Of a DNA stretch of 64,000 bases, positions 4,697-32,500 are shown in pieces (the first letter of the stretch is position 1; each line of letters begins with the position of its first letter). The notes beneath the pieces are model-generated. The model was not told where the DNA came from. It saw only the letters and a list, made by a program, of their open reading frames with translations, and did no database searches. A program made the position numbers and the translations under genes. Origin of the DNA: Saccostrea cucullata. Lineage: Eukaryota. The stretch is from NCBI RefSeq assembly GCF_032062105.1, contig NW_026928671.1, positions 124,001-188,000 on the forward strand, written 5' to 3'.

Positions 4697-7600
4697 TCAT
4701 CTGTGTGGACTGTCCACGCGACCAATGTTGTCCACAGGTCTGGTTTGAGGAACTACTTCCATCTCGGTATCCTGGACATAGGCACCAGAAATCTCATTCT
4801 GGCCTGTATCCAAATGACCCACAGTCTGGATTTCTTCCTTGAGCGCATGGACCTTCATGACCTCCCCCATACCCTTGGTTGTGCCTTGTCTGAAGAGAAG
4901 TCTGGATCCAGGTCGTAAAAACTCAGGCTGCTTCATGAATCGGAATATGACATGTGCCTTTTCATTGGTTTTAACAGATTCCTTCAATAGAAAATAATGC
5001 ATGACGTAACTTCAGTTAATTGCTTAACACTGAAGAGCAAAAAAGGACAACAGTTATGGTCAAAATTAAAGTTAAGGATATTACAGGAAGCATAAAAGCA
5101 AGATTTAATTGCAAAGGCATGAAAATATAGTTATTGACTCACAGATACTTCTTTTTGTAACAAACTTTTTACCCCTTCATATAATAATACAAGGTATTTT
5201 ACTCCAAATAAAATAATGTATCCTCACATGAATTGCAGGGTTTTTTTTTGGTTTTTTTTTTCGGAGATAGTGGCAACTCAATGTAGTTTGGAGTTAGTAC
5301 ATGGTGTATGTGTAATTATTAGTACATGGTGTATGTGTAATTATTAGTACATGGTGTATGTGTAATTATTATACAGTACTATGGGATAAAAAATATATTA
5401 TAGAAACAAGAGCCTGTGAATTGACTGTAAGGAAATACATACCTTATCTTTGATTATCTCCACTTTGCAGATCTGACAAACATTTCCTACATGAACAGTG
5501 GTTTCAAATCCTCGACTGATTTGATGGGTGTGGTAAAGCAGGTAAATACTGGCCTCAAATGTTCTACACACAAAGTTGTTAAAGGTGGACTCGGGGCTCA
5601 CTAGCACCATTCCCTGTAGAAAGGCAATCATCACAAAACTATTAAAAATACTGACTTGATATGAAACTACCCGTAATTCAGATATCCCCAAAGATTTCCT
5701 TTAATAGTTTTTGTTGTAAACAAAAAATTACTGGAGGTTTAATAAAAAGAAAAGCAGCTAATAGAAAAATGTGTTTATTTAGTGTCCAAGCATACATCAA
5801 CATGCATCTCTAAATGCAAAATAAATAATCAGCTGAGATTTTACTCACCCGCCTGAGAATATTTCTGTGTTTCTCTGTCAGAGCTACTGTAGCTGCCTGC
5901 CCGGCCTGAATGAGACGACATGGCACCCGATTCCTGTGAACAGTTTTGACCTTGACCTCCTTAAAGCTACCATCCTCCAGGGGACCTAGGTGGAGATTGT
6001 CCCCCTCCTTTATGGACCCTCGACTAATGTGGCCCCCTAGAACACTGTCCACACCAGGCACAGTGAACTGTGTGTCAATCTAAAAAGTTCATATAAAAAT
6101 TGTATTAATGAATTAAAAGTAAACATGCCAGAGAGAAAGCCATAAAAAATGAATGAAATTTGATAATTGCTTCTAATTCTGTATCACTTACCTGGAACTC
6201 AGTGTTATCTTGTGATAGTTTCTCCCTCTCTGTTACATTTTTCATTGATGGCAAAACATTCAGAAACTTGGTTAAGAGATCGGTATTCTTCCCAGTTACA
6301 CTGGAAATGGTAAATATAGGGGTAATTCTGAAAAAAAGAAAACATACAATATTTTATTTCATTGAAAAAATGACTAGAATCCAAGAAGTTATCTCCCATT
6401 TATTATTTAATTTGTGCATCACAAGTACAACAGTGTACTTTCTAAGCATAAAAAATTAGCTTTTCATAAGCAAACAGTACTGCAAAACCAGCTCACCTTT
6501 CAGAATTAAAGTTAGCTGCAGCAGTCATGGCATCGTCTTCAGATTTAATTCGTAAAGGGACCCGATTACAACCTGGTGATTTGAGTATTTTCTCCAGTTG
6601 TGAGACAGTTCTCTCGATCATGAATCTTCTGCACATGTCTATCTTAGTGATCACTACAAACACAGGAACTCCCAGGGCCAGGGCAAAACCAAGATGCTCC
6701 CTGGTAGTCCCAGCTGAAAAGGGGATTTTTTATCATTATATTTTTATAAAATAGATATTTTTATTGTTACACCATATGTACCAGTAATACAAATAATTTC
6801 CCCTTACTGGTAAATGCATTTACATGTGATTCAGTTTATTACAAAGGAATTTCTGAATTACAAACATGATATCAGAGTATGCAATCCATAATACATGAGC
6901 CTATCTACATATATACACATATCTACTATATATTTCCTTTCAAATTTCTAATTTCATAAATTATTTTGAAACTTACCCATTCCTGTGTTGGCAGAAACAA
7001 CTAGCATGGCAAAGTCTGGACAGTAACCAGTCAGACCAAATATAGTAGTCTTCAGGTACTTGTGATGACCAGCTAAATCTATGAGGGTTATTAGTTTGGT
7101 GGAATGTTCGCATATCTCCTCCACTGTTTTAGAGTCACTGTAGTTCACAATCTAGCAAAGCAAAACAACTGTTTTAAGGGTTACATGTAAGATGTAGGTA
7201 TTTCAGGATTTAATATGATTATCAATTCTTCAGTCAATATTTCATAAATTTTTCTATTCAGAAAAATAAATGTAAGCAAAGACCAATTTATAATCAGATG
7301 TTGAAATGAAAATTGAATCGATTTCTGTGCACCATCCTACCTCTCCTTGACTGTTGAACCCCAGGATTTCGTGACTTATACAGGAAGTTCTCCCAGTTTG
7401 GATTTCATGCAGGTGACGGAACAAATTCAGTCTGGCACGCCCCCTCCCATTGTCTAGTTCCCCCTGGGTGAGGACACCAAGCAAAGTGGATTTTCCAGCA
7501 TCCACATTCCCTAGTACTGCCAACTTCAAATCAATGAACTGAAAATGAACAATATTTAAAATCAGAAATTCACCCACTCAGATTCCTTGAGACCACAAAA

Positions 7601-10600
7601 AAGCCAAATTGAGAAAAAATAGTAAGAATGCTCCATCCTTAATATGCCAAACCATATAATTTAACTTAACAACAGTTTACCACTGAAGATAACTAAGAAC
7701 GACTTATCAAATTCCACTTTTTTTCTTATTAATTTTCTAAATGCCAAGGGCCTTCTTTGGAAAAATGCCTTTATTGAGTTTCAAATGTTAATGCCGACAT
7801 TTGAAAGTTCAACTCTCAGAAAGAGTAATTCCATAAATTCCAGAACATATTATTATCATTTCACTTACCTCCTGATTTTCAGGGACCTTTCTAACAAGGA
7901 TTTCTAAAGCTTTCCTTTGGCACTCTGCCCCCTCTGTCTCTACAATTCGCTCCCTTAGTATGCTTGTTGTTGCTCCTAGTCTGCAAAACATTATACATGT
8001 ACATAAGATCTTCAAAAATGCTTCAATTCAAACCCATAGTATCAATTTCTATAGAAATTATGACTTAATTCATTTATTTCTTTTTCTTAGTTCTGAAGAT
8101 GATGCAAACTGTGCAAGGTTCATCTATGAGATACATGCATTAGTGAGGAATAATTTTAGCTACAGGAAGGCTCATTTTGAGGATTGTTAACTCTGTCCCA
8201 TTAAATTACTGACTACCTTTTTTTCCCTAGAATTAAAGTGATAGAATTTTTTCAGTTCATTTTAATCAAAACCTTGAAGTATGAGAGATCATAGAATATA
8301 AAAATGTGGATAGAAGATAAGCCTAAAATTATGATACTCTGTCTATTCTACAGTGAAAAATTACAGTGCCGTCAATGTATTAATTTTTTAACTTTTTTTT
8401 TATTTTGAAATTCCCAGCTGAAGGGGTACAGGACTCTGTAGCAAAAAGGGCCAATGAAGCCCAGCACATTTGTTCATCTGTGAAGGAAGCAAGAAAGCAA
8501 ACATGATGTACAAATAGAACAGTGTTTTATTCATTCTCCTGACCTGCTGGCCATCCTGTTGAGTGTATTCAATGATGCTGTAAGTTCCTCCTCAGTAAGC
8601 CCCACCAACAGACCGTTGTCCTCTACCCCTATCTCGTAAATGGCCTCCCCTTCTCCCTCCTCCAACCGCCATTTCATCTGAGTGACAAGGTGCTCCACGC
8701 GAGACTCTGAGGGGTTCACTAGCTTCAACTATTAACACAATATGAAAAGGTTTATGATTAATTATGCATTGAAAAATGAGGTCTAGTTTAAAGGAAAATT
8801 GAGCATTTTTTCATTCATGCATATTTTTTTTAAAAATATCAATAACACTTCATCATGTTACCAATAATATGAAGAAATTATGCTTTATAAGTCTAAGTAA
8901 CATTCACCAAAAAAAACAATATGTTCTTGTTTGCATATTCAAGAATCATATTTGCATGTGAATCAATATTTTAAAAAAAATTCATCAAATATAGGTAAGA
9001 AACAAACCTTATACTCGATGTTTCCTTCTTCAATCTGGAAAAGATAGACAGAAATTTTCAAAATATTTACAGAATTTAGTGATTTTATTTTCTAATTGAT
9101 GATCCTTATCAGGAATAAAAAAGTATCAGTATCACTCAGTATTGAGAGCTCGGCTCATTTACAGAGTAGAGTTTTTTTTAATATGAAACATGATACATGT
9201 ACATTGTAATAACAGAAAGTTAAGATACTGGCAGAATTATACACAAACAATTTTAAAAAAAATTAATATTTATGATACTTAAAAAATAAGGACTTCATGG
9301 GCATCTCATTTGAAATCAATTTTTTAAAAATTCTTATGAAAAAAATATATTTTACAATATCATATAAAAATAAATTCTGCTTTTCTTTGTCTGTGTAGAG
9401 AACTAGGCTACATCATTGATCATCAAATTATGTTCGCAAAAGTGGTTGAGAGTAAGTACATGTACATGTACTTCATTTTTACAGGTAATTTAATTTGGCA
9501 GCTTTGGGGTCAACATCCTGCTTGAACAAGCTGACTTTGATCAGCAATTGCTCTTTAAGCAATAAGCCCCGCTAAAAACCACAATTAAGAAATAAATAAA
9601 AAGTTTAAAAATTTCAATGGGAATTGAAGTGGGTCGGTCACATAATAAAATCCTATGAAGGCCAAAGGCGCAAAAAAAATGCGCTCGGTTCTCGATTTAT
9701 TTCTCCATAATTTTAAAACTGTAATATCAAAATATTACTAACCATGTGTTCCTAACATATTCTTTGACTCTTTCCACAACAAAATATTCCTCATAATTGT
9801 TGACTTGTTAATAGTCCTCCTGGCCCTGATATTGCAATCATCGAACATTTTGCTTATTTATACTGCCAATTTGGTTTTAAGATAATTCGGTCCAATATGC
9901 TTCGTTCAGATGTCAACAACGAGAGAACTTGATAGAGGAGAGAGGAATTTTTTGAAATCTTCCATTTTTTGCAACTGAGGTAAGGATTTGGAAAAATTAA
10001 TCAAGAATCGAGCGCACTTTTTTGTGCGCAATAAATATACAGCTTTTTCAATGGGTGGCTCTGTAGCTCTCCGGTCTATCAATATATATTTTTTCGGAGA
10101 GCTACAGATCTGCAGCTAGCAAAGGATTCTTTTTAGAAGGGAATATTTTGTGAAAGGCTACTTGTAATCAGTAAAAGTCAATGGATTGTTGTCTGGGAAT
10201 ATTTGTATTCGTGAAAATTAATACTGAAAAGACACAAGAAACAAGTTCAAAGATTGATCATGTTGATGATAAAAATTTGGAGGATTCTCCAAATTTTGGA
10301 TGGGCCTAAAGGGATGGATTGAGACACTTGTCCGAACAAGTTCATTTGCAATCAAGTATTAAATTTGCTCAAAAACATTAAATTTATGATTTTCTTACAT
10401 GGGACATGATGGGTACTTAATTCTTATGAAGAAAAATGCTAAATTATCTGGATTTACTATTTAAATTAGCTAACTTTACATAAACATTATGCAGTAAATT
10501 TTTTTAATGCAAGCTATGTAGTCTAGAGAGACAATACAGATTTTCCATCCTGGTTAGAAAGACTATATACATATAATTCTTATTATTCATATAAGATTCC

Positions 10601-11140: not shown

Positions 11141-12215
11141 TAATAATAAATAAAAAATTCTAAAATGAAAACCAATCTGGGTAAATTTTACGGATATGTG
11201 TATTGCAACTGCCTGATGAAATAAATGGAGTTTTGAATGAAATTTAAATACTGTTGGTACAAATTAAACACAAAAATTCGTTAGAATAATTTTTAACTCA
11301 TACAAATGTGAACTCGCCATAATTCAGTGCATTTAAAGTTTAAATTTTACCTACACAAGAAATGTGGACTATAAAATGAAAAATAAATACAACAAAATAA
11401 AATAAATAATTTTGCTTTAAATGGAATTCTCAATGTTAAATCATTGGCAAGTTTGTTGTCTTTGAGATTTTACTTCTTATGACTTACAAATGACCCCCTG
11501 TTGACCTTAAAGTCAAAAGGTCAAGGTAAAAAGCATAGAATTAAAAGCTTTCCAGCTCATAATTTTAATACAGTAAATATTTTAGTTAATTTGTGTCATG
11601 ATATCCAACTCCCATTGCCTAAAAGAAGACACCTTTTAATTGAAATCAAAAGGTCAAGGTTAGATATTCATAGATTGCATAAAATCAACCCTACCGATTG
11701 GGAGGTCTAAAGGTGAAAGGTTACTCGTTCCTTTCTCAAATGTTTATTTTAGGTCTTCAACCAACTTATTTTGTGGGGGACATAAATTCCTTGAATTTTC
11801 ATTCCTATTTTCATTAATTTTGAGTTCTTCAGTCCAAATCAAAATTTTTAACTTCAAATATCTTGCTGCACAGTGCTTCACGATTCTTTTGTATTCATAG
11901 AAAGAATCAGTTGATTTGTGTGAGTCTTGCAACATACTGTCCTCCTCCCAGATTTGTGCAAATATAAAATTAATGTAGATGTGTATCATACAGGATAAAT
12001 GAATGATAAATAAAAATATATAAATACTTTTCAAAGTTTTATTACAAGAAATAAAGCAGTAATTTAAGAAAGTAAAATCACAGGCTCATTCTGGTTACAA
12101 ATCACACAGCACATCTTCTAGCAAGATACTTAATAGATAATTATGAAGAATTGTTAACAGGTACATGTCATATATAGTTATTGCCTATAATTTTTCTGTC
12201 CATGATGAGTTGTCT

Positions 12216-12290
12216 GCCCACTATCATTCCTCCAGCCAAGTCAAGTTCAAAAAACTTTTAGACAAAGCTTTCATTACAGATAACATCAGC
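12216..12290 (-). promoter_or_regulatory. SECIS element (type II) candidate in SELENON 3' UTR
   Basis: Minus strand reads GCTGA TGTTATC TGTA ATGA A AGCTTTGTC T AAA AGTT TTTTG AACT T GACTTGGCT G GA G GAAT GATAGTG GGC. It shows helix I TGTTATC/GATAGTG, a UGAA/GGAG core with tandem G.A pairs, and helix II AGCT-TT-GTC/GAC-TT-GGCT. AAA lies 11 nt after AUGA, and there is an apical ministem AGTT/AACT. Folded by eye. Confidence 0.8.
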
Positions 12291-13045
12291 ACAAATTATC
12301 AATAAAACAGAAAACTTATAGTCCATAATAATAATATGCATGTACGAGGAACATTCTTCTTGAATTACATTAAAAACTATCGTGGTAAATTATTACATGA
12401 TATAGATTGAATTGTTGGCTTTGTGAACGTTCTAAAGTTTTGACAAATATTTTTAAGGTAGCTGTAAATTGTTAAATTTTCTAAATGTAAGACATGATCA
12501 ACAAACTGTTTAAGGACATGGCAAAATGCTTTACTGTAATATTATACCAATTTGAAAATATCTACTTTATGGATGTAAAATCATAATATTAATCATAAAA
12601 TTCACATAATATGAAGTAGATAAAAATAAAGAACAAAATTATGCACATAGGAAAAAAGCATAAAAGTAAATTAATACATCTAATAAAAATTCATAAATTG
12701 ATAAAATTCCCTCCTAGCATTAACAGTGATAAATGAGATCTGTCATAGCTGATGGAAATATAATTTACTATAATATCACATGTCCAGCATTGTGTGTTCA
12801 ATACCCTGATTGTAGAAATCTTATACAATAATAAATTATGAGGGCTTCACATACATATGAATTCTTAAAATGTACATAAAAAGAGACAACAAAAAGCTTT
12901 TGGCAATTGAATTTGCTGGATTTCTCTGTAAGATTAAAGTTTGATTAGAATTATTTAGAATCTAAAACGCTAAAACTTACAGTATTAATACATTTAAATT
13001 TTATACAAGCTCCAGTGAGTTGTAAATAGAAGTTGAATTTGCAGT

Positions 13046-16000
13046 TTATGTGGAAAATGGTTGATATTCTTTTGACCTTTTAATTCCCTCCTTCAGAAAA
13101 ACATTGTAGTAATAGGCATGGGAATCTTCAAATCTGCAACAAAAATGGACAATGTTGATAATGGGTGGTGAGTATTATTTTTACACAGTTCTAAAAAATG
13201 CATCGGGCATGAAAGGAGCTGATTTCTGTATTGCATGCTGCAGGAATTTCATGTAGTGGTACTCTTGTGGACCATTAAATCTGCCAAGAAAAAAAAAATC
13301 AGAATTCAGAATTAGTCCTTTTAAGCAAACATATTGAATATTCATGCACTAAAAAAGTTTTGATTTTGCCCTTTCTTCTTTCAATTAAGTTTATTATATT
13401 AAGAAAGCCCAAATAACGTTTCCTATTGCTTCATGTTTTCTTATCAAAGTATGTATGTTAGAAACAGGTAAAAACATTTTCTTATAAAAGTATGTTAGAA
13501 AAACAGGCAAAACATTATATTATCAAAATATGTTAAAAACAGGCCAAAAAAGGAGATAACTATTAATAAACAACACACCAACATTTTCAAAGGGTCTGAA
13601 GACAGTTTTACCAAAGCCACAAGTGACGGAATGTTAGAGGCATGCACAATATTAAAATAAGCAGTATATACTCAGACCTTAGAGAACACAGAGATTATTA
13701 ACACAAAAGATAACAAATTGATAGATCATTTATCTGAAAATGTTAAGCTGTTTATCAAAATTGATTCAGTTAATAAGTATACTTTTTTATCAACTGAATA
13801 TTTTAGGTTTATGGTTAATTACACTGCAGATAATCATCTCTTAGTTTTAAAAATAGAGATTGTGCTAAAAGGGAGATAAAAGGAAGCATTGGCATGTTTC
13901 TAGACTGTGAATAATGAAATCAAAGTTTGCTGTTAACTATATTCAAATATCATATTTGGTACCCCCCCCCCCCTTTCTTTTCACATATAACAACCCATCT
14001 GTTCCAAAATTGATTCATAAAAGGATAATGAGCATGTCCATGCATTTTGTTCTGACAGGGGCTATGTCACTGACACTGAAGTGCATTGATGGCCAAAAAT
14101 GTTAATGATGTTAAGTTCACAACAGTGAGACAATGTGGTAAGCAAAAACAAGACCTGTGAGCATTAGATAAGTACCAGTAAAACTTTTCAAACACTTCCA
14201 AGTGTTGAAAAAGACTAAACTATATTCATCGCTGCCATACATACCCATCTGCTTTGAATTTTTCCATATCTTGTTTTAATCGGGGGCACATCGAGTCCCC
14301 CTGAGGTCCTCCTAGCCTACTAGAAGCTGTAATTCTCTTGGGTTTAGGATTGACTTTTTCGATGAATTCCCTGTAAAAAGTTTACCTTATGATAGAAGTT
14401 CCCAAATACGTAAATGGGTAATATAATTTTACATTCTTAAGCACATAAATACCAGTAATGCAAATCCCTATCTATTCTTGATTACTAGTTTATAATCAAC
14501 CTGTTGGAAGTGTGTTTAATTTTTTTTGTTTCACAAATGAAACCCCCTTCCCCTCTTCCCTTCCAAATGTTCAATGTTTCAACTCCAGGCAAGTCATCTC
14601 CATTGTCATGTTTTTCACTTCCTGAGGAATAATACTCTGACTTATTCATAATATATTTAACATCATGCTAAAAACTACTTTATTGTGTTGGTAACTTGTG
14701 TTAGTAGCCTCTGCTTAGAAGATTTAAACCGATATACTAAATTACAGAAATAATCAAACAATATGATTCATGCATGCAAAACGTTGGGATCATTATAAGG
14801 GAAACCCATGGCCCATGCAGACAAATTCATATCCGAAACATGCATATAATTCTAAATACCCAACCAAAGATAAAATGCTTGTACAATTTGTTCTACATAA
14901 TTCCAATGGCTGCTAAATCCTGATATCTATGGAAAAACTTGAGAATATGATAAAATTTTGGACAGTTAGCTAAAATCTTAAGGAGTTTTTTATTATTTTC
15001 TGTTTAGAGATGTAATCATAAGTATTGCTTTAAATGCTCAATAAATGAATTGTCTGCTTAAATGAATTTGTAAAAATTAGTAAAACATGCAAAGCAAATT
15101 ATATCATGTCTACACTTTACACTTTCTTCAATAAATTGTTAATATTTTTTAAAAATCATTTAAGTGGTGAATCTGTTCCAAATTCCTGAAATCTAAAACA
15201 AAACCATTAATGCTTCTCTTTCCCATTTCTTCAGCTCCTTTCAGATATACATTGTATATATGTAAATACTGTATGTAGTTGATGTAACATGTAAAATGTT
15301 CATCCCAAGAAAATCACTGTGAAACAATGCCACGAGTTGCTGAGGTTAACACAATGGTTTTCTTGAGTGAAAATTTTCAATGCTACCCACAACTGTATGC
15401 AATAAATGTTTTATTTTTCTATTTGCTAAATCAGAACTGTATACATACCAAGACCATATTTTTTGTTATACCAATCATTGTGAAGTTAGATTTTCTCTTG
15501 CTATATAAAGTCACACTGGAGGGCATGATTCTTCTCAAAGATGGCAACAATATTGTTGTTTAATGTTTTTTTTTCTTTTTTGACCAATCAGTATTTGGAA
15601 TGAATTTGAATAATTTGCATAAGATCAATATATAATAAAAGGCAATAAAACATTTTCCATGTTTGCATCACTTGAAAAAAAAAAAACTTTATAAAATAAC
15701 ATAACATTTATATCAGCATCATTTCAATCCCAAGCAACAGTCAAATTGCTAAAAATTGAAGAAAAATTAGCTGGAATGTAAAATATTTAAATATTTTAAA
15801 AAAGTGTAATAGGATCTGGGTGTATTGGCCAAATAGCTAAGTGGTAAAACATCTGTATATTTAAGGAATGGTTCAAGGTTTGTGTCTTAGTCTGGCCAAA
15901 TCTGTTACATTTGAAACCATTAGTTTTGAGGATCAAGTATCAGTTTTATAAATGCTTTTCAGACAGAAATCTTCAAGGATACAGGAAATAAAGGACTCTT

Positions 16001-19000
16001 TCATGAACAAGTGTCATTTATTTCCTATTTCAGTACAGGAGTGTTTTTTCCAAGGACATCTAGTCAACAGTACAATCATCAATCTCTTAATCCTACAACT
16101 TGACTTGACAGTTTTGTGTAAGTGTAATGTGTTGTTCTGTTTTAAACCATAAATCTTAATCATATTTTTCAAATAGATACCATAGTTTTATCTTATTAGC
16201 ATTCATGTTTTTTTTTCTTAACTTCTTTATTTGCTTGGGGGATGTTCAGCAATCCATATATATATATATATATTTTCAAAGTTAACCTCATCTCACTCTG
16301 ATAAATTTTAATATGTAAAACTAACAGAATCTCGTCAAGGATTGTCCTATTTTATTCAGTACATGTGTATTTATTTTTCAACATGTGGAATATCCCTTCC
16401 ACTTACCCAAAAGTCCCAGCCAGAGTACTGAACAGGGAGGGCTCCGTTTCACCGTCTGCCCCCTCATCCATGAACTCATTGGCATTGACCTTGTGGAGAA
16501 TGGTGCCATTAGGCAAGGCCACCATCATCATGACTGGGAACTTGTAGTTCTCCAGGAAGTGGGCGGCTACCTTGCTGTACTCAGGCTGATGAGGATCTTT
16601 CTCAAGTTCCTGGAAAAAATAGACCATAAATAGTGAAACTTTCTGCATTAAAATGGATAAGTTTGATTATATTTTATTTAAATGATGTGTTTGTCAGCAA
16701 ATGTAGAAACTGTTTAACTGTAAAGCACTTCGCAGGGTTGTTCCTTAGAATTAAAATTGAAGGAGACATTAAAATAAAAGGTGTGTCTGGGGTTTTTACC
16801 ATATCAAGAGGCTGGAGGGGAATAGCAGGATAACCAAGGGATTATGTCATCATTGGCCAGGAATTAAGGACATCTATGACTTAGTATGTATTTCACATAA
16901 TAAGTGATTTGGAATGACTACAAGAAGAATATGAAGTTAAACATGAAAATTTAAAATACTTTGATTACATTATGACACAATGAATTCTATAGGACTGGGT
17001 AAGAACATGTATCTCTTTATTAATGGTCTATAAAATGAGACACATCTATTAGTATAATTGTCACATTTACCTTCAAATCAGCGACGAGTGACCAGCTGCT
17101 GACAAAGCTCTCGTTGAGGAGAGCCAGGATGGGCGTACTCTCGAGGGCTGTTTCCCTCAGAGTACGCCCGGAACCTCAGCAACTCTGATCGTCCAGCGCA
17201 CCCCAAAGTAAGATGTGGTGAACCAGACGATTCTCTTTTTTGGCTATTTCAAATGCATCTGTGAAGTTGTGGTACACAATCTGCAATGTATAAACAGGAA
17301 CTGAGCATCTGTGGTTTGTGCAATGCAACTATTTTATTCACACATGCTCCTGAATGATCCTGATGTATGCATTTGGAGAGCAAATTTAAGGAATTAATAT
17401 AAACTATCAAAAATATAAATTTTACCTTCTTGAAAGGATAAAATGCTATTTCTAGATTCCTCTCAGCATCGTACATGGATATTTCCTTTGTCCATTTCAT
17501 ATTTTGGACAGTCTTAGCCATGTTTTTATCCTCGGGCAGTTCTTTCCCTTGATCCTCCTTGGGGACTTTCTTCGATGGACTAGAAATTTTAATCTCCATC
17601 TGAGGCATGAAGCCAATATCCACCTCCATGTTCTCATCTGTTTCTGGACCATTCAACCACTCCATGTCTGAAATATGTTATGTAAGATGTTTGAAGTCAA
17701 ACTGAGAAATCCCTGCCTTGATTCCTTTTTATAAAATTGAGCTACAATTTTCATTTCATTTAGTATTTTAAAAAATCTTAATCTTGATTGTTTTTACACT
17801 AAATAAATGATTGCACAACAATATTGATCATTTTAAAACGAATTAAATGATTGCACAAGAATTCTATCTATAAATACTTTACATGTACTTTTTACTGTCA
17901 AAATTTATCAGAGAAGAAAAAGCACTTGTTTGTTTACTGTTAAAACAGGTGTTACTCTTTTGCTGACTTGACATAATCAGTTACTTACCAATATTGAGAC
18001 GTTTGTCTGTGGGAACATACATGTGAAAATGCTGGATGTGTGAGCCATCTTGAGATATTATTAGATTGCCCTTGAATTGAGCTGGTGTTAACCAAAATGG
18101 GTAATATGGAGCCTCATTCAGCTGATACTCTGCATGGATTCTATAATAAATAACAAAAAGATATGTTTCATTTTATAATGAGGTATGTAAAATAAAGAGT
18201 TTAAATGTCTGGCAAAGAGGAGTGGGAAAGTTGGTTTTATAACTGGGATAAAACTTTAAATAAAAACAAATTCCAGGAAAAATCTCAACCTACACTGAAA
18301 GCATATAAAGGACATTTAATTAAACACAAATGTCAACATAATTTATAATTAGGTATGTAAAATAAAGAGTTTAAATGTCTGGCGAAGAAGAGTGGGAAAG
18401 TAGGTTATATAACTTGGATAAAACTTTAAATAAAAACAAATTCCAGGTAAAATCTCAGCCCACGCTTAAAGCATATAAAGGACATTTACCTAAACACAAT
18501 GTCCACATATTTGTCATTGAATGCCCTCACAGTGGCTTTGGCTCCTTGAGGAGCAAACCTGGTTCTGAGGAACGGACGAGGATGGAACATTGCTAGGAGT
18601 CTATGAATGAGGACTAATCTGTCCTCAACCTTAGGGGGATTATAGCGATTGCTGGATTTCATCTGCATGTCAAATTTGGCAAAGATCCCTTCATCCATAG
18701 TATAGATGTCGTAAACTTCTCCAACTTGACTAAGCAGTGCTTGGTCACTTGGGAAAAAGGCTTCCTTAAAGTGTCGAGCACCAAAATTATTCCACTCTTG
18801 GGTCAAAGTTGTCCACTTCTTCAACCCGATCAGGGAATCCATATTATCAGACAGGAACTAAAAAAGTCAAAATCATAAAGAAAATCTTAATTTCTATTGT
18901 TTTATGAATTTTACATTTTAATATTTTCTTTTTCTTGACCTCAGTCTTGTAAACATTTTGAAATTTAACATGCATATGGTATAAATGAGCTAATTTTAAT

Positions 19001-20144
19001 TTCGTTTTAGTTTCATACTTCAATTTAGACAAAATCAATCCCTGCACCATGCATCAAGCTGTTACATTTCAAATGGATTATCCCTTTTAGTCATAAAATT
19101 CAGCATCCATGATATATGCACAATGAAATGAAATTTTAACTGCCTGTTTGAGATAAATTTTATGATGTGCAACAGCTTTCAGAAGAAACAGTAACTTTTT
19201 TACATAATGTGATCTGTGCAATGCTGAAAATTATTGATTTTAAGACTTTATTGCCCAATCCAACATCATTTTTTTTTTTTTAGTGTCAGCAGCACTGAAT
19301 ACGTTATCATGTAATACTTACCGATTCATTGAAATCTTTTGTCATGGTTTCTAACAGAAGAGGTTGAAACCTGGCTCTGGCCGTCAAAACTTCATCGTCT
19401 TCATCGATCAGCTGTGTGTACTCTGGTACTGCTGTTATCTGTATAAATATTTAAAAAAAAATATCCTGGAGCAATTTTGAACATGTCATTTTCAGAAAAA
19501 AAGAATTATTAAAATCATATTTTGAAGAATTCGTAATTGCTGGCATTTAGATCATAATACCTTTGCAGGAAATAGTCAATATTAAATTTAATATATGTGG
19601 TAAATATATTATGCTACAATATTGCTCTCCTTACATTTACACCATCTCCTAGCAGCCTGTAGTACATAGCCTCATATTCCTCCAGAGACAGCTTTCCGTC
19701 CATATCTCGGTCATACTGACGGAAAAAGTCCACCCCTGCCTCACCAATGACACTTTTAAGTCCCGACTCAGGATCCCATGGGGCAATGCCATAGTAATAC
19801 TTCCACACCCTGTCTCCAACATACCCTCCCAAGGCAATAAAGCCAATGGCTAAAATCACCAAGACAGGATAACATATCCACTTGGGTATGGCAAATATGA
19901 TCCTGTTGGCAGGAATGTAGATAACATCAGGTTGTTGGTATGGCACTTGTTGCGGCAGAGGTTGCTGTTGCGGTGGTGCTTGTGACCCTTGTGCACTTGG
20001 CGTGTCTTGTCCTGTTTGCTCTCTATTTTTTGCTTGCTCTGCTTTAGGTTTTTGTCGACCTTGTTTTCGATTTCTTAATTCCGTCTCCCCGTCGCCCCCT
20101 GGGTCGGGGCCAGAGGGCTTTGCCGAATCCTCCTTCTTCGGCAT
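13046..20144 (-). CDS. SELENON: Selenoprotein N (ER membrane, EF-hand, SCUG motif); in-frame TGA = selenocysteine at 17176-17178
   Basis: Exons 19635-20144, 19322-19438, 18490-18857, 17989-18140, 17426-17667, 17071-17280 and 16407-16609, optional 14245-14370, then last exon 13181-13280 or 13046-13133; all phases are consistent. Motifs: N-terminal TM helix, EF-hand [53 protein letters not shown](U)[36 protein letters not shown], and C-terminal FED...FLKEG. Confidence 0.96.
17131..17169 (-). promoter_or_regulatory. Selenocysteine redefinition element (SRE) hairpin in SELENON coding sequence
   Basis: Six nt after the UGA (spacer GGTTCC) the sequence reads GGGCGTACTCT-GAGGG-AAACAG-CCCTC-G-AGAGTACGCCC. 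This is a 16-bp stem with one bulged G and a 6-nt loop, at the same position as the known SEPN1 SRE. Confidence 0.9.
18175..18509. repeat. ~170-bp tandem duplication spanning the SELENON exon 3 donor site
   Basis: Two similar copies start at 18175 and 18345 (ATAATxAGGTATGTAAAATAAAGAGTTTAAATGTCTGGC...GCATATAAAGGACATTTA..TAAACACAA.TGTC.ACATA). Confidence 0.9.
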
Positions 20145-23500: not shown

Positions 23501-26500
23501 TTTTGTCAGTCTTCGAATCACAGGTTCAAACTGACAGTGACAGACTCTCAGTTCGTGATTCTATTGGCTGAAATTTTCATTGTATTTTGGAGAGAATCGA
23601 AAAACTTTTTTACCGAGTGGAAAGTGTGTCAAAAACCAAGATCTATATACAGTGAAAAGCATCATTCAAATCTTATTTGATATGTTTCATATTCAAAATA
23701 TTTCTGTAAAAATCGAAAGGAACAGTAATGAGTAAAGTAATTGATTTCTTCATAATTCATGTACCTACAAAAAGCTACAATTTTTGGAAAAGATAATACT
23801 TGTCGTAACCATTTGGCAGGGAGAAGGTTACCGAAGATAGGGCCTTTCAAGTGAAGGAGAGTAAGGAAAGAAGTTGAAGTATTCCAAGACGTGAAGAATC
23901 CTGTCCTTAGTGTGGAATTCAAGGTATTAAAAATAATCTAACAGCTATCATTATGGTCCAGATATTAGTATTCACACTTTCAAAATTTAATACTGGTAGA
24001 TTTAGTACTAAGAAAAAATACGGCATAATTCAATTTGAGATATTTCAACATGAACAGTTTTAAATATTGTCATCAATAATTTTAATTGTAGATATTGATC
24101 AACTATTCCCATAAGAAGAAGCATTTTCCTCCAGGGTACCATGGATGTGTGGCAATATAAATCCAAAGGACAATTGAGGCCTAGTTAAAAGTCACTTTCC
24201 TGCACATTCAGTCTTAGAATACATTGTTTGCTAACAATAGGACTCAAACTGATTTACAAACTAAGAAAAAAATCTGCTATGGAAATTAATCTTAGGTGTC
24301 ATATCAATTAAATGCTCTTTGTTACTTAATTGTAATGTTTTTAATGTAGTGAATAGGTTAGTTTGAATAAATTCACAATTGTTTGAAAATTTTGTTTGTT
24401 TATTTTTTTCCTCCCTCCCTCGTAGGTTTTGAACTTTAGATGTGACGTTAAACGTAGAATTAACTTTAAACAGCCTAATATTATAAATATTTCAGAAATG
24501 TATCATGCTATAGACTGACATTGTCTTTCACAGACCTGGAGTTTCTCTGGGGTTTTCTTTACTCTGTGGATTGGCAGATTTCCTCCGACAATGCCCTCCC
24601 AATGAGGTAACATTTTTACTTTTTCAGATAAAGAATTTTCCAAAGATACAGTCACATTTGAATATTTGCATATCCACTGCTCTCTCCCACTGTGAACATG
24701 TATCCATCAAATGCGTTTACATGACTATAAACGCAACTGCTTTTGCTATGAGTGCAATTGCTCTAACTCACTCGTGTAGAACGAGGTCTACTACACTTAT
24801 GTACTGTGTTGAGAAGTATATATATGAAATGTTTCGTAAAAGGACTAAATATAAGTTTTTAATAATATTTTTTGGAAAAAAAGAATTCAGAACAATTTAA
24901 ATTTGCTGTTTTATATCTTTAAAAATTTAATTTTGGTCAATGTATTTAATTGTAATATAAAACTTTTTAAAAATTGAATAAAACTCCATATTTTTTTTTT
25001 TTTGTATCATGCATACTTGTACAAAGAACGATAACTCTTCACACTTGGGTAATAACATTCAGAAAGAGAATTTTTTAAACTAGTATATCTATTTCAAGAA
25101 AAAATAAATAGAAAACGTACCAAAAAATCACAGAAAAGCATACTGGAGTAATAATCATTATAAAAGCATTCTCATTTTTATCATAGTGTTAAATTATTGA
25201 TTTTTGTCAGAGGATTTCAATAACGTTGATTGATGACGTCACGACTGCATCAAAACAAAAATTAAGAGAATGGGATGATGGCGCTGCTTGTATCCTGATA
25301 ACTGTGTTTGAGAGGGAAATACTTTATAAATTGTGATTTATTAGAGAAAAGGGGTATTGATCAGGTGTACTGATTTTAAAGCTGTATGGTTTTCTTTACT
25401 GAAGACAGAAGAAGCTGCGTCCTTATGTAAGTCAGGATTTCCTCTGATATTCTTGACAACATCAAAGAATGCAAATATAAGTAATAAACAGCGATTATTT
25501 AGTGAACATGGCGTAATGAATAGCAATAGCTCTGCTGGCATATTTTCCATGATGCGCTAGCGCGCATCATGGAATATGCCAGCAGAGCAATTGCTATTCA
25601 TAACGCCATGTTCACTAAATAACGTTGTTTATTTCTTAAATAATTCAAAACAGTAAACTAATGAATGTTTATGAAAAATTACACATGTGAAGAAACTATC
25701 ATTTTGGTTGTACCAAATTTCAGATATAATTTCACAGTATTTTAAAAGAAATCTTCAAACCGGTGTAGCATAATATTTTGATACCGCGATATATTGAACC
25801 CGGGTTCGAAATATCGCATAATATTTTGAACCCGGGTTCACTTTTTCGCTGCGATATATTGAACCCCCTTATAAAATATTGAACCCCTACCTTTTTCATT
25901 AAAGAGGTAGGGGTTCAAAATATTATGGCCATAAAATATTGAGTCCCCCTGCCCATTTAATTTTACAGGGAGGGGGGTTCAAAATATTATGGCCATAAAA
26001 TATCGAATCCCCCTGTCCTTTAAATTGATGATGGAGGGGGTTCAAAATATTATGGCCATAAAATATTGAGTCCCCCTGCCCTTTTTAATTTTTGGAGGGA
26101 GGGGGTTCAAAATATTATGGCCATAAAATATTGAACCCCCTGCCCTTTTTAATTTTAGAGGGAGGGGGTTCAAAATATTATGGCCATAAAATATTGAACC
26201 CCCCTGCCCTTCTGATTTAAGAGGGAGGGGGGTTCAAAATATTATGGCCATAAAATATCGTGTCCCCCTACCCTTTTAATTGATGTGGGAGGGGGTTCAA
26301 AATATCATGGCCATAAAATATTGAGTCCCCCTGCCCTTTTAATTGATGTGGGAGGGGGTTCAAAATATTATGGCCATAAAATATCGAATCCCCCTGCCCT
26401 TTTTAATTTTAGAGGGAGGGGGTTCAAAATATTATGGCCATAAAATATTGAACCCCCTGCCCTTTTTTATTTTGAAGGGAGGGGGGTTCAAAATATTATG

Positions 26501-29500
26501 GCCATAAAATATTGAACCCCCCTGCCCTTCTGATTTAAGAGGGAGGGGGGTTCAAAATATTATGGCCATAAAATATGGAGTCCCCCTGCCCTTTAAATTG
26601 ATGTGGGAGGGGGTTCAAAATATGGCCATAAAATATTGAGTCCCCCTGCCCTTTTAATTGATGTGGGAGGGGGTTCAAAATATTATGGCCATAAAATATC
26701 GAATCCCCCTGCCCTTTTTAATTTTAGAGGGAGGGGGTTCAAAATATTATGGCCATAAAATATTGAACCCCCCTGCCCTTTTAAATTTTAGAGGGAGTGG
26801 GGTTCAAAATATTATGGCCATAAAATATCGAGTCCCCATGCCCTTATTAATTTTAAAGGGAGGGGGTTCAAAATATTATGGCCATAAAATATTGAACCCC
26901 CTGCCCTTTTTTATTTTGAAGGGAGGAGGGTTCAAAATATTATGGCCATAAAATATTGAACCCCCCTGCCCTTCTGATTTAAGAGGGAGGGGGGTTCAAA
27001 ATATTATGGCCATAAAATATGGAGTCCCCCTGCCCTTTAAATTGATGTGGGAGGGGGTTCAAAATATGGCCATAAAATATTGAGTCCCCCTGCCCTTTTA
27101 ATTGATGTGGGAGGGGGTTCAAAATATTATGGCCATAAAATATCGAGTCCCCTTACCCTTTAAATTTTACCGGGAGGGGGGTTCAAAATATTATGGCCAT
27201 AAAATATTGAACCCCCCTGCCCTTCTGATTTAAGAGGGAGGGGGGTTCAAAATATCTCCATCTCTTCTTGAGGATGACGTTGTAATGATTACTATTGCTT
27301 TAAAGACGTACAACACACTGGGGGAGATAACTCTTGCGATTTCAATTGAACGTTTGACGTGACGTCAAATTTAACGTCAAAAATAAAGCGTCAAAACGAC
27401 GAGTAAAACGATCCCGATGTATATCAATCATGAAAGAAAATTGGGATATGGGGCTGAGCTGTGATTGTGCGTACCATACTCAATCAATAAGTATTTTTTA
27501 ATTAACCCGATTAAACTCCGTAAAAAGCAAAACATAAAATACCACCCCTTAATGTTTATTTCATTTCATTTCATATACAATAAAGTGTATTTTTGATCAA
27601 AGCGCAGCATTTTTTTTTATTCTGAAAATTTTATTTTACATTGCCGAAATTCTCATTATGTACAATTGGCTATATAACATTCCGATTAATGGTCTTCATT
27701 ACAATTTGTGCATTTACGATATAAATATTGTTTTTCTTCTTTAATTAAATAAAACAATAAAAAAAAAAAGAACCTTTTTACAATGTAAAATCGATGATTG
27801 TTCTCAGACCCTTACTGATCAAAGAGGAACAACTCTGAAAATGTAGGAGATGTTTATTTTCCTCCCTTTATTCACGGTTTTCCACAGAATCAGATACATT
27901 TACAGCAAGACTTGATAAATCCGAGAATTGAATACTATAGACCTCATTATACACAATGTAAGTATAGAATTGAAAAGAATTGTTCACTTGTACTGAAATT
28001 ATCTGCATTTATGAATATCCTATTGCAGCAAATCGTTTGACTTTCTGTCAACAATGTCGGTTCGCATTTCCTCGAACCAAAACAAAACGTAGCCTATGAG
28101 ATTTTAAAAAATATCAAAGTGTGATTTGATATAAATTGAAATAGAGGAAGAGTTTAATGTTTGATATTTTGAAGTTAATGTGGACGAATACGGAATTTTC
28201 ATTTTAACTTTAGAAGTGACGACATTGAAAGAAATGCGTACAATATCATGAGGGGTGTACATCTATGCAAATGTCGATGTATCCCCACGGCCACATACTG
28301 TCTCGTTTGAAATAATGACATGAAAGAAACTACAATTATTCCATTTATATCAACGGAGAGTTGAATATACACCATTTTTTAATGAATAAAATTAAAGAAA
28401 TAAAATTAAAAATCAACATATTCAAGTTCAACAAAACTTGAATTCGTATCCAGGTTTCATGTGATATGGAACGCATAACGCATACATATATGGACTAAAC
28501 ACTAAAATCCTTCAGTAATTTTTTCCTGATACATATAAAAAGAGTAGTCAATATTTATTATGCATTCATGAATTTAAAAACTAATTCATACCTGCGGGAT
28601 TCAAATGACGAAATACCAGTATATTTGCACTGTAAACGACGTTTCGTCAAACGCTAATGGTCTGCGACGCAAAAAAGGAAGGGGTGGGGGTGATAGGGGT
28701 ATTCAAAAATTGCCTAAAAATCTACATTTAAATACGCTTTACATATGAGAACTTTTAAATTTGTAAGTTAATATATTTCTGAAGCAAAAGCAATATTCCA
28801 ATTTAATTTTTTTAATGTGTATTTGTAGATTCATATAACAAAGTGATCGACCCCCGTCTGAAATACGCGCGGGAACGTGATTTATTGAGAAAGGGGGAGG
28901 GGGTAATTTTCCGCTATTAAATCAAAACTGGTCGTACAAAAATTATACAAAAAATTATGAAGATTATTTTTACTACCAGCTACCTAAAGAAAGTTTTTTA
29001 CTAAAATTAAACGACAGGTTTTTTCACAAAAAAATTTTGAATTTGAAAAATACGCAATTTTCAAGGCTTAGATAATTCATAGTTTTTCAGTTTAAGGTCT
29101 TTAAAAATTATTTTAATGATATGTATATCAAAAAGATGACTATGTTATTGTGTTAAATGGTTAAAGGAATAAGCCAATGAAATTTGATATTTATATCTAA
29201 CCTGGCTTTTTTGAAAATCAAGGTTTAAGTAGTTCATTGATTAAAAATTTTCTCTCTTTGTAAACAACTAAAGGGGGGTAACTTTTGGAAGTTCCTGTCC
29301 AAAAACCACTCGAACGATTTTGTCCAAAATGTGCATATATGCAGTAGATATAGTCATGTACTAAATATACAAAAATAACGAAAATTAAACGACAGGAATT
29401 TTTTGGGGTAGGTGTGTTGTACATCCTTAATTAACTCTATTTAACTCTATTTAAACACCCGAATGTTGTATGTAAGTTAACCACCCCTCAATCTGGGCTA

Positions 29501-32500
29501 CCCTATCAGTGCACTCTCAAAACACTGTATTGCATAATATAGAAACCACAAAGGGGAAGCAACAAGACAGTGGGGATTGTTGACCTCCTATGTTGACCTC
29601 CTATGACACCTCCCTGTGTACACACAATACACAGGTGCTATACCCCTGTTACCTCCTCAATGGAGAGATACCTTTCTTATTCAATAGCATTGTTCCTTAA
29701 AATTTCCTTTATCAAATTGTTAATTACATGTATATACAATTAAATAAAAATGAATAAATACCTTATGAGATTCATCATGATACATGTGTATAATTATAGT
29801 TATTTGATGTAGAATATTGTGGGTTTAATAGTAAAAAAAAAAATTATTTCCTTTGTAACAATTGTACACTTCAATATTATGATTATATTATCCTACCCTC
29901 AATTCTTTAAGAATTGCATGTATATGAAAAAAAAGTTTTATAATAAAGATACCCTACTCTCAAGTAGTGGAAGTGTGTAAGTGGGAGAAGGATTTTAGAT
30001 TATTTGCAGGCATATTTTATCCTCACTCCCTTTTCAAAACAGTTCAATAGGGTGACTGAATAATATATGAGCCATAATATTTTAAGCCCCCATCCCTGTA
30101 AAATTAAATGGATGGGGGACTCGATATTTTATGGCCATAATATTTGGAACCCCCTCGCTGTAAAATTAAATGGGCAGGGGGACTCATTATTTTATGGCCA
30201 TAATATTTGGAACCCCCTCCCATTTAATTTTAAAGGGCAGGGGGACTCAATATTTTATGGCCATAATATTTTGAACCCCCTCCCTCTTAGATTTAAAGGG
30301 CAGGGGGACTCAATATTTTATGGCCATAATATTTTGAACCCCCTCCCTCATAAATTAAATGGACAGGGGGACTCGATATTTTATGGCCATAATATTTTGA
30401 ACCCCCTCCCTCATAAATTTAAATGGCAGGGGGACTCGATATTTTATGGCCATAATATTTTGAACCCTCTCCCTCTTAAATTTAAAGGGCAGGGGGACTC
30501 AATATTTTATGGCCATAATATTTTGAACCCCCCTCCCTGTAAAATTAAATCGGCAGGGGGACTCGATATTTTATGGCCATAATATTTTGAACCCCCTCCA
30601 TCTTAGATTTAAAGGGCAGGGGGACTCAATATTTTATGGCCATAATATTTTGAACCCCCCTCCCTGTAAAATTAAATGGGCAGGGGGACTCGATATTTTA
30701 TGGCCATAATATTTTGAACCCCCTCCCTCTTAAATTAAAAGGACAGGGGGGTTCAATATTTTATGGCCATAATATTTTGAACCCCCCTCCCTGTAAAATT
30801 AAATGGGCAGGGGGACTCGATATTTTATGGCCATAATATTTTGAACCCCCTCCCTCTTAAATTTAAAGGGCAGGGGGACTCAATATTTTATGGCCATAAT
30901 ATTTTGAACCCCCCTCCCTGTAAAATTAAATGGGCAGGGGGACTCGATATTTTATGGCCATAATATTTTGAACCCCCTCCCTCTTAAATTAAAAGGACAG
31001 GGGGGGTTCAATATTTTATGGCCATAATATTTTGAACCCCCTCCCTCATGAATTAAATGGACAGGGGACTCGATATTTTATGGCCATAATATTTTGAACC
31101 CCCTCCATCTTAAATTTAAAGGGCAGGGGGACTCAATATTTTATGGCCATAATATTTTGAACCCCCCTCCCTGTAAAATTAAATGGGCAGGGGGACTCGA
31201 TATTTTATGGCCATAATATTTTGAACCCCCTCCCTCTTAAATTTAAAGGGCAGGGGGACTCAATATTTTATGGCCATAATATTTTGAACCCCGGGTTCAA
31301 TATTTTATAGGGGGGTTCAATATTTCGCAGCGATATTTTGAACCCGGGTTCAAAATATCGCGGGGTTCAATATATTATATGACACCGGTAGTCCAATTTT
31401 TAAAAAAAAAAAAAAACATCTTAAAGAGCATTTTATAAATGCTCTTTTTATTCAATGAAGGATTCAATATCGAAACATACTTTTTAGGTTCCTCAAAAAA
31501 GTGCAGACATTCATCTCTACCTGAATACAGCAGTTCCTTTTGGGAGAATATCTGATGTTAACTGTGATACTGTGATGGCCAAAATGTACAATAAACCAAG
31601 CTACCTCCCTAGGGCACAGAAAGTAAGACTGCTTTGTACTCACAATCATTTGAATGTATGTAATCCATTTCTAACAGAGAGCTGTCTCCCTTCTCCATAT
31701 ATTAAATTGCTTTGGGTACATTCTTGAAATCAACTTTTTATGCTTTAAATAATTAAATGTTAAATATCTTCCGTATACATGTATCTTTTAACTTAATGCT
31801 TCTAATAAAAGTATAAGATAAATAATTTACAGAAATCATTGAAAAATATGTTTTTTTGTTTTAATATACCGGTACAATCATTCAGAATTCTTAACTTCAC
31901 CTGGAAAAAAATCTTGGGTATATAACAATAAATATCCTTTCTTTCTCATTATTGATGGTTTCTACATTAAAGTTTTGTAATGTATAAATAAACATGATGT
32001 TATGACATAAAGAATGATAAGTTAACATCAAGGAGAACATGAGATTTTTTTTAATTTGTTTTAGCAACCTTCTTGGAAGCCTGTGCTCCATAAAGGGAAG
32101 AATACTCTTTATCTAGCCCTCACAGAATATGTCAGGGCAGTGCAGGTATGTATCAAACTGGCACACTTGCTTTATCTTCACTGAGTGTATTAGAGTTTCA
32201 AGCATGTATCATACTGCTATTACAAATTGTTTCATGACATTGATAGACAAGTATGTATCATACTGCCGGAATACCAAACATTACTTTTTTAATTCACTGT
32301 TAAGTTGTTAATAATTAAAAAGTCTTTTAGAATGATAAAAAATAGTCCATTGTTGTGCATGTTTAGATTTTATTAAACCACTTTCAAATATAAAAATAAT
32401 TTATTTTTTTCAAGTTTAACAAAGAGAATATTGCTGACACTTTTGACCTCTATGGCACAGTGACCTGTAAATCAGAACTGGAGGTGGCGCTGTCAGACAT

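Follow-up and report, generated by a model that had tools for sequence, protein, structure and literature searches.

According to the accessible portions of PMC7474598, human SEPN1 is known as a selenocysteine (Sec) protein located in the endoplasmic reticulum (ER) that takes part in the redox control of SERCA, and its oligomerization is calcium dependent and proceeds partly via a nonconserved cysteine. The alternative splicing described for human SELENON concerns an Alu exon 3 and leads to an untranslated form, and an SRE hairpin after the UGA is named as a feature of SelN (PMC12839072, accessible portion). SELENON was reported to be single copy in vertebrates (PMC13134290, accessible portion). 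Two systems outside the family are also close in kind, namely, the 77 human C-terminal substitutions that derive from tandem exon duplication and are ascribed to alternative polyadenylation (PMC8373072, accessible portion) and calcitonin exon 4, a case of Fox-1/Rbfox regulation, where upstream or exonic (U)GCAUG represses exons (PMC2777236, accessible portion). SELENON is not named in the accessible main text or one supplement file of PMC8373072, and SelN isoforms go unmentioned in the accessible portions of PMC3473315 and PMC13134290. No paper on SelN isoforms or splicing in bivalves was found in the literature searched, which lay outside subscription papers and database isoform lists; both isoforms described below may already be in the automatic oyster genome annotation.

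We analyzed a 64,000-nucleotide stretch of the oyster Saccostrea cucullata (contig NW_026928671.1, positions 124,001 to 188,000; here called the window), in which a minus-strand SELENON gene ends in two alternative C-termini, A and B. The gene shares with the SelN (SELENON/SEPN1) family a type II membrane layout, an EF-hand, the SCUG motif, an SRE-like hairpin, and a predicted thioredoxin fold, and it also has a SECIS-like element. The event is a duplicated-exon C-terminal substitution, which is a known class; it differs from the described human cases in its single poly(A) site and coupled cassette exon. As in the class of PMC8373072 (accessible portion), two homologous C-termini are adjacent, one or the other is used, and both are expressed in RNA. 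Unlike that class, there is one poly(A) site, the two acceptors lie 147 nt apart in one exon, and an obligatory nonhomologous cassette is involved. Compared with the human Alu exon 3 form (PMC12839072, accessible portion), variation here is C-terminal, and both forms have an open frame with one Sec.

Gene structure and SelN identity

Seven coding exons from 20144 to 16407 formed one open frame with a single TGA, located in an S-C-U-G motif (Table 1). Exons 1 to 3 were predicted from splice signals, frame, and homology, without read-based junctions. The EF-hand in exon 1 matched Pfam EF-hand_5 at 27.2 bits (above the cutoff), the N-terminal membrane span had a hydropathy peak of 2.24 at residues 82 to 100, and the Sec was residue 498. 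The SRE-like hairpin folded at -32.7 kcal/mol (z = -6.3), which was matched by none of 200 shuffles. Two proteins were predicted: isoform S, in which exon 7 (E7) is joined to B (629 amino acids [aa], two cysteines), and isoform L, in which E7 is followed by cassette exon C and then A (675 aa, three cysteines, with the extra conserved Cys supplied by C). The predicted short protein had 65% identity to the Pinctada imbricata model, 49% identity to Solemya and Mactra SelN, and 41 to 45% identity to wombat and primate SelN; homology to the named primate, wombat, and Mactra proteins (41 to 49% identity) extended across 470 to 540 aa. Judged on every feature testable from sequence, the locus is a predicted SelN orthologue whose SECIS score falls under the threshold, and the gene identity given in the original prediction was upheld by full-length homology, the S-C-U-G motif, the SRE-like hairpin, and the EF-hand.

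Table 1. Positions in the window of SELENON exons, alternative 3' ends, and candidate regulatory elements.
Feature	Position	Strand	Basis
Coding exon 1 (start ATG, predicted transmembrane segment, EF-hand)	19635..20144	-	Open frame and GT donor
Coding exon 2	19322..19438	-	AG/GT signals, frame, homology
Coding exon 3	18490..18857	-	AG/GT signals, frame, homology
Coding exon 4	17989..18140	-	Exon model; 3' end is a loose read end behind 17668
Coding exon 5	17426..17667	-	Joint 17280/17426 in 4/4 runs
Coding exon 6, with S-C-U-G motif (TGA 17178-17176)	17071..17280	-	Sequence and RNA joints
SRE-like hairpin, 16 bp, beginning 6 nt past the Sec TGA	17131..17169	-	Folding
Coding exon 7, phase-2 donor to C or B	16407..16609	-	RNA joints
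Eight TGCATG (Rbfox-type) hexamers (span 13343..15091)	15091, 14844, 14819, 14778, 14774, 14044, 13646, 13348	-	Motif; putative function
Cassette exon C (126 nt; 42 codons with one Cys; phase 2-2), spliced to A whenever included	14245..14370	-	RNA joints and Pinctada orthologue
Branch-point-like CTAAT, 35 nt upstream of acceptor A	13311..13315	-	Sequence motif
Acceptor and terminal open reading frame (ORF) A, 32 aa, last helix of L	13181..13280	-	C-to-A joint in 8/8 runs
GCATG inside A	13238	-	Motif match
47-nt spacer: 3' untranslated region (UTR) in L, intron end (acceptor B) in S	13134..13180	-	Sequence and reads
Acceptor B with its 28-aa terminal ORF (last helix of S; part of the 3' UTR in L)	13046..13133	-	E7-to-B joint in 7/8 runs
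Shared SECIS-like element (AUGA...AA...GA core)	12220..12284	-	Rfam SECIS_1
AATAAA (12043) and shared poly(A) site	12028..12043	-	Poly(A) loose end in run X1; raw-read depth zero below 12014

The same genome has another SelN-like selenoprotein gene (G000:C10546, ~179500 to 181800, plus strand; L010/L011). It has an in-frame TGA after DDQSC, an intron just past it, a strong hairpin opening the next exon, and a SECIS-like match of 24.6 bits (L011:1236-1299). Its single terminal exon, which ends in TEL, occupies the equivalent phase-2 position. Within SELENON, intron 3 contains a tandem 170-nt duplication (18172 to 18509) that starts at the exon 3 donor region. Elsewhere in the window, the minus strand carries a retroelement fragment with a reverse transcriptase domain (PF00078) and broken frames (3 to 1743), a translational GTPase gene downstream of SELENON with weak EF-Tu domain matches (4700 to 8800), which we take to be GTPBP1/2-like, a PHD-like zinc-finger gene (44400 to 49500), and a leucine-rich repeat gene (56500 to 59900). 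A heavy-metal-associated domain gene, presumably copper chaperone-like, lies on the plus strand (52576 to 53189). Two arrays of 63- to 64-nt repeats with ~20 copies each occupy 25871 to 27255 and 30049 to 31292, and their units are apparently related and in opposite orientation.

Two acceptors in one terminal exon

The minus-strand acceptors at 13280 and 13133 (both cag/A), on which the original prediction was built, are real: both are present in the sequence, and both had junction reads. They open phase-2 terminal ORFs of 32 codons in A (stop 13183-13181) and 28 codons in B (stop 13048-13046). Four AG sites between 16406 and 12200 passed a pyrimidine filter, which missed the C acceptor, and A and B gave the longest phase-2 ORFs among the four (32 and 28 aa versus 7 and 9 aa). 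Acceptor A has a longer pyrimidine run than B and lies 147 nt further from the poly(A) site; in another genome, the translated intron points to a stretch matching the CTAAT upstream of A. The A/B region had one match in the assembly.

A-containing contigs continued across the 47-nt spacer into B, so A is not a separate exon with an end of its own. Instead of the two separate tandem last exons that had been proposed, the gene has one terminal exon, with a single poly(A) site, that can be entered at either of two 3' splice sites, A and B, spaced by 147 nt. Use of A as an internal exon joined to B via a GT at 13184 (a 51-nt intron, in frame) was rejected, with this joint absent in eight runs. No AATAAA was found between the A stop and B. 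One poly(A) tail was seen among the loose ends listed, at ~12028, 15 nt past the AATAAA, and weaker poly(A) signal variants at 13084, 13005, 12769, and 12535 had no tail among those same loose ends. Since A and B lie in one terminal exon, the same SECIS-like element is on both messages; the earlier placement of both C-termini upstream of a shared SECIS agrees with L contigs reading through B and with the one poly(A) site seen. The SECIS-like element is a full-length SECIS_1 match with an intact core, scoring 24.4 bits (E = 0.49) where the gathering score is 35, with a folding z of only -1.07, and it sits inside the transcribed 3' UTR. Length variants of the 3' UTR were common among samples (a 71-nt replacement in 12956 to 13028), and 3-nt insertions in the A-B spacer varied between samples (13172 to 13178), beside the likely branch point of B.

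Coupling of cassette exon C to acceptor choice

RNA was examined in 8 of 24 listed runs, comprising three raw-read runs of one study (X21, X22, and X23) and contig sets of five other studies. For the raw-read runs, 44 to 47% of each run was covered, and joints were counted from 3 reads up. The E7-to-B joint was covered by 45, 17, and 14 reads in X21, X22, and X23, respectively (total, 76; 41, 17, and 13 exact, plus 4, 0, and 1 with a variant base near the joint), the E7-to-C joint by 52, 35, and 39 reads (total, 126), and the C-to-A joint by 74, 50, and 50 reads (total, 174). E7-to-A, C-to-B, and A-to-B joints were not found at ≥3 reads in the three raw-read runs and so had <3 reads each per run; the same data did yield a 3-read joint from ~15449-15459 to B. 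Among the contig runs, C-to-A was present in five of five, E7-to-B in four of five, and E7-to-C as a joint in one of five and as matching loose ends in the other four. E7-to-A and C-to-B were not seen in any of the eight runs, of which the contig sets cannot demonstrate absence.

When each unseen joint was set to 2 reads as a worst case, coupling of A with C and of B with C skipping still gave Fisher P values of 1e-28, 3e-12, and 1e-10 in the three raw-read runs, and free combination of two donors with two acceptors was rejected. A is used only after C, and B is used only when C is skipped; there are two isoforms and not a pair of freely interchangeable acceptors. The original prediction gave both donors (16407 and 14245) only, without this coupling: both acceptors were indeed spliced, but of the four donor-acceptor pairs it allowed, only 16407 to 13133 and 14245 to 13280 were seen.

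Isoform S accounted for 0.46, 0.33, and 0.26 of E7-donor reads in X21, X22, and X23 (chi-square P = 0.04). Run X4 gave one unbranched 346-nt contig through C, A, and B down to 13065, with no E7-to-B joint; this is a hint of a sample-dependent S:L ratio, the absence being one seen in contigs. The choice between S and L is likely set by cell type, for runs that carry no tissue labels and include three raw-read runs from one study. RNA reads were mostly 95 to 99% similar to the window, with fixed differences, so the sampled animals were other individuals or members of a very close species and not the assembled animal. Two further stretches of intron showed RNA signal. A minus-strand stretch of intron 7 (15449 to 15606) was transcribed at a low level, with 3 X21 reads joining ~15449 (GTATGT donor) to acceptor B, and is possibly a minor cryptic exon. 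In the C-A intron (13776 to 14244 and nearby, minus strand), low contig depth was seen in several runs, and none was seen in the intron just upstream of C, which suggests late removal or partial retention.

Origin and conservation of the two C-termini

The homology of A and B, which was part of the original prediction, was confirmed at both levels. Their proteins gave a BLOSUM62 local score of 45 (z = 6.8), and their DNA, acceptors included, gave a score of 68 (versus 39 ± 5 in shuffles), each reached by 0 of 2,000 shuffles; DNA identity was 48% ungapped in register and 26 to 30% out of register. From these similarities, A and B likely arose by tandem duplication of the front end of the terminal exon. 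B retains family consensus residues that are missing from A (Asp at -6 and Lys-Glu-Gly at +5 to +7). The Pinctada model, a gene prediction that lacks the Sec exon and is incomplete, ends in a C-like stretch (score of 113 to C; z = 21) and an A-like tail (score of 81 to A and 47 to B). A tree built on 30 columns of 17 tails chosen by hand separated the A copies plus Pinctada from B and 13 other tails with modest support (UFBoot 74). Because the Pinctada tail is A-like while B keeps the consensus residues, we favor a duplication that would predate the split from the Pinctada lineage.

In another genome (Logan records), A was identical at 30 of 32 residues and C at 37 of 40, with diverged flanking introns. 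The same-genome paralogue (read by eye) and L003 each have a single terminal exon that opens at the same phase-2 position. No other species yielded a B in searches that included exon 7 queries, with only 3 and 9 proteins returned, and that were blind to B-only fragments. None of 122 pattern matches to A in metagenome contigs was confirmed, and a second scan gave five distant loci, of which four had one terminal-helix motif after the match, one had none, and none had a tandem pair. In Pfam, neither C nor A matched a family, and B gave just a subthreshold YABBY match; the ESM Atlas gave no usable match for the Pinctada C and A stretch.

Predicted structure of the swapped segment

Searches of PDB sequences found no solved SelN structure, the best 60 of 249 matches all being calmodulin. 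An AlphaFold2 model of wombat SelN was made from a 79-sequence alignment and a record without the Sec-Gly pair (mean pLDDT of 78.7); it has a confident last helix (569 to 587) after a lower-confidence linker. The region from ~426 to 588 matched thioredoxin-fold proteins (best Z of 13.8, root mean square deviation [rmsd] of 2.2, 111 aligned), and Escherichia coli thioredoxin 1 to 108 aligned with wombat SelN 428 to 580. Because the last wombat helix lies inside the thioredoxin match, the segment swapped between A and B corresponds, on this orthologue model, to the last helix of the thioredoxin fold. The earlier proposal that the isoforms differ in this helix is therefore borne out as to the swap and on the wombat model as to its place in the fold, but the helix is not the only difference, as L also carries the 42-codon exon C. 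In the Pinctada model, pLDDT was <50 at residues 415 to 455, followed by a helix at 458 to 469 that starts directly after the conserved Cys-Pro and by a helix at 475 to 494 formed by the A-like tail. Since SEPN1 oligomerizes partly via a cysteine, the extra Cys in L is a lead worth testing, not a finding.

The linker before the last helix could be measured in 98 homologues among ~180 proteins and was 16 to 48 aa long in 93 of them and 65 to 75 aa in 5: Pinctada, Mizuhopecten OWF41178.1, and three further records (two in one cluster). Mizuhopecten OWF41178.1 and P0002/P0014 have ~35 to 41 extra residues before the last helix, placed as C is here; unlike here, the insert has no significant similarity to C and is followed by a consensus-type or B-like tail. 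Among the five long-linker proteins, only the Pinctada insert resembles C; for the scallop and P0002/P0014 inserts, homology to it was rejected as not significant (z < 1). The scallop-type inserts could be either a rapidly diverged orthologue of the cassette exon or the product of repeated gain.

How C and the acceptors may be coupled

The locus yields two abundant mRNAs with homologous last helices, which probably arose through tandem duplication, and we consider it likely that a cell-type repressor silences C and A together. With the repressor absent, C would be included, and its donor would take the nearer acceptor A, with the longer pyrimidine run, so that no C-to-B joint would form. With the repressor present, the acceptors of C and A would both be blocked and B alone would remain, so that no E7-to-A joint would form; one repressor acting on both acceptors would thus explain both missing joints. 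With a common 3' end instead of alternative polyadenylation, each message would retain the one SECIS, and each product would therefore be a selenoprotein. Calcitonin exon 4, unlike A, presumably has its own poly(A) site. Just ahead of the last thioredoxin helix, L would have a luminal loop of 42 aa that is for the most part disordered and closes with Cys-Pro and a short helix; this loop would change partner binding or oligomer state, not the Sec active site.

An Rbfox-family protein is our tentative lead candidate for this repressor, and a cell-type repressor of any kind is rated higher. Eight sense copies of TGCATG occur in the 3,273 nt from the E7 donor to acceptor B, versus 1.19 ± 1.06 in shuffles (0 of 1,000 reached 8) and a window-background expectation of 1.5 (P = 2e-4); the motif was spotted by eye before testing, and as one of 4,096 hexamers it would not survive correction. 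It was the only strong excess among 10 motifs tested (QKI, P = 0.03), with no copies in B or the UTR and two on the antisense strand. TGCATG also clumps, as 7 copies occur in a different 3.3-kb stretch of the window. Five of the eight copies are 400 to 720 nt away from C, and one is on its downstream side, a position from which Rbfox would activate. A Pfam Fox-1_C search of the genome gave no match, which is a weak test for an intron-split invertebrate gene. Calcitonin exon 4 is like A in that an upstream 3' alternative is skipped for a downstream one, with (U)GCAUG just upstream and inside; its repressing elements are at -34 and +45, and those of A are at -68 and +43 (PMC2777236, accessible portion). 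Unlike in that system, the -68 element here is not conserved in the other genome, where the translated intron had 0 possible sites within ~240 nt (10 of 10 ORFs) and one possible site at -249, and the Rbfox role here is predicted from motifs.

The nonconserved TGCATG upstream of A would also fit regulation of C alone, in which A is recognized only via commitment of the C donor across the 964-nt intron; skipping of C would leave the poly(A) end to define the terminal exon, and the nearer B would win, with no repressor on A. One switch would then account for the strict coupling, and the minor 3-read joint from ~15449 likewise goes to B and not to A. However, the pyrimidine run of A is the longer one, A also has a CTAAT, and its distance from the poly(A) site is greater by only 147 nt, so it is not obvious why E7 would ignore A without repression; we regard this account as rather unlikely. 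A model in which long-range RNA pairing places C and acceptor A in one loop and brings exon 7 to B is, in our view, very improbable. The skipped region is contiguous (16406 to 13134), and the strongest pairing of intron 7 with the A region had an energy of -29.5 kcal/mol, but 3 of 40 shuffles reached that energy, local folds at all three acceptors were weaker than shuffles, and no outstanding inverted repeat was present among the longest 25 of 120. Neither acceptor hairpins nor long-range pairing rose above shuffles, and both were rejected.

Two other explanations concern the standing of the isoforms themselves. B could be a recent lineage-specific copy or a leftover without separate function, with L and its A end as the working form and S as tolerated noise. 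L outnumbers S, the Pinctada model terminates with a C-like stretch and an A-like tail, one sample has an Asn-to-Lys change in B, and B is known from this species only, by searches that could not have detected B-only fragments. S nevertheless makes up 26 to 46% of E7-donor reads, B keeps family consensus residues lost by A, and no indel was present in B among the rows listed, so we judge this reading improbable. That the two forms come from different alleles or loci, and not from regulated splicing of one gene, might be suggested by reads that are 95 to 99% window-like with fixed differences and come from animals other than the assembled one. Yet the A/B region has its one match in the assembly, both forms occurred in seven of eight runs from six studies, and L reads cross B with window-like sequence, which makes such an origin scarcely credible.

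Implications for SelN biology

Returning to joint repression of C and A, a broader scenario can be sketched, which as a whole we think unlikely. Since the split of the oyster and pearl oyster lineages, an Rbfox-type switch might have produced the short canonical form in muscle or nerve and the long form elsewhere, the latter with a conserved third luminal Cys and a coevolved last helix. That Cys might act as a built-in resolving or oligomerizing residue that retunes ER calcium-redox control, and read-through of the upstream copy might be what lets the last exon duplicate without duplication of the SECIS.

The locus is a compact, all-or-none case in which inclusion of a cassette exon is tied to the choice of acceptor, and it illustrates a way for a selenoprotein gene to acquire a second C-terminus and still keep one SECIS. 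A natural, abundant isoform pair bears on the role of the SelN C-terminal helix, and since it swaps that helix and adds or drops a conserved Cys, it offers a ready comparison for partner binding and oligomer state.
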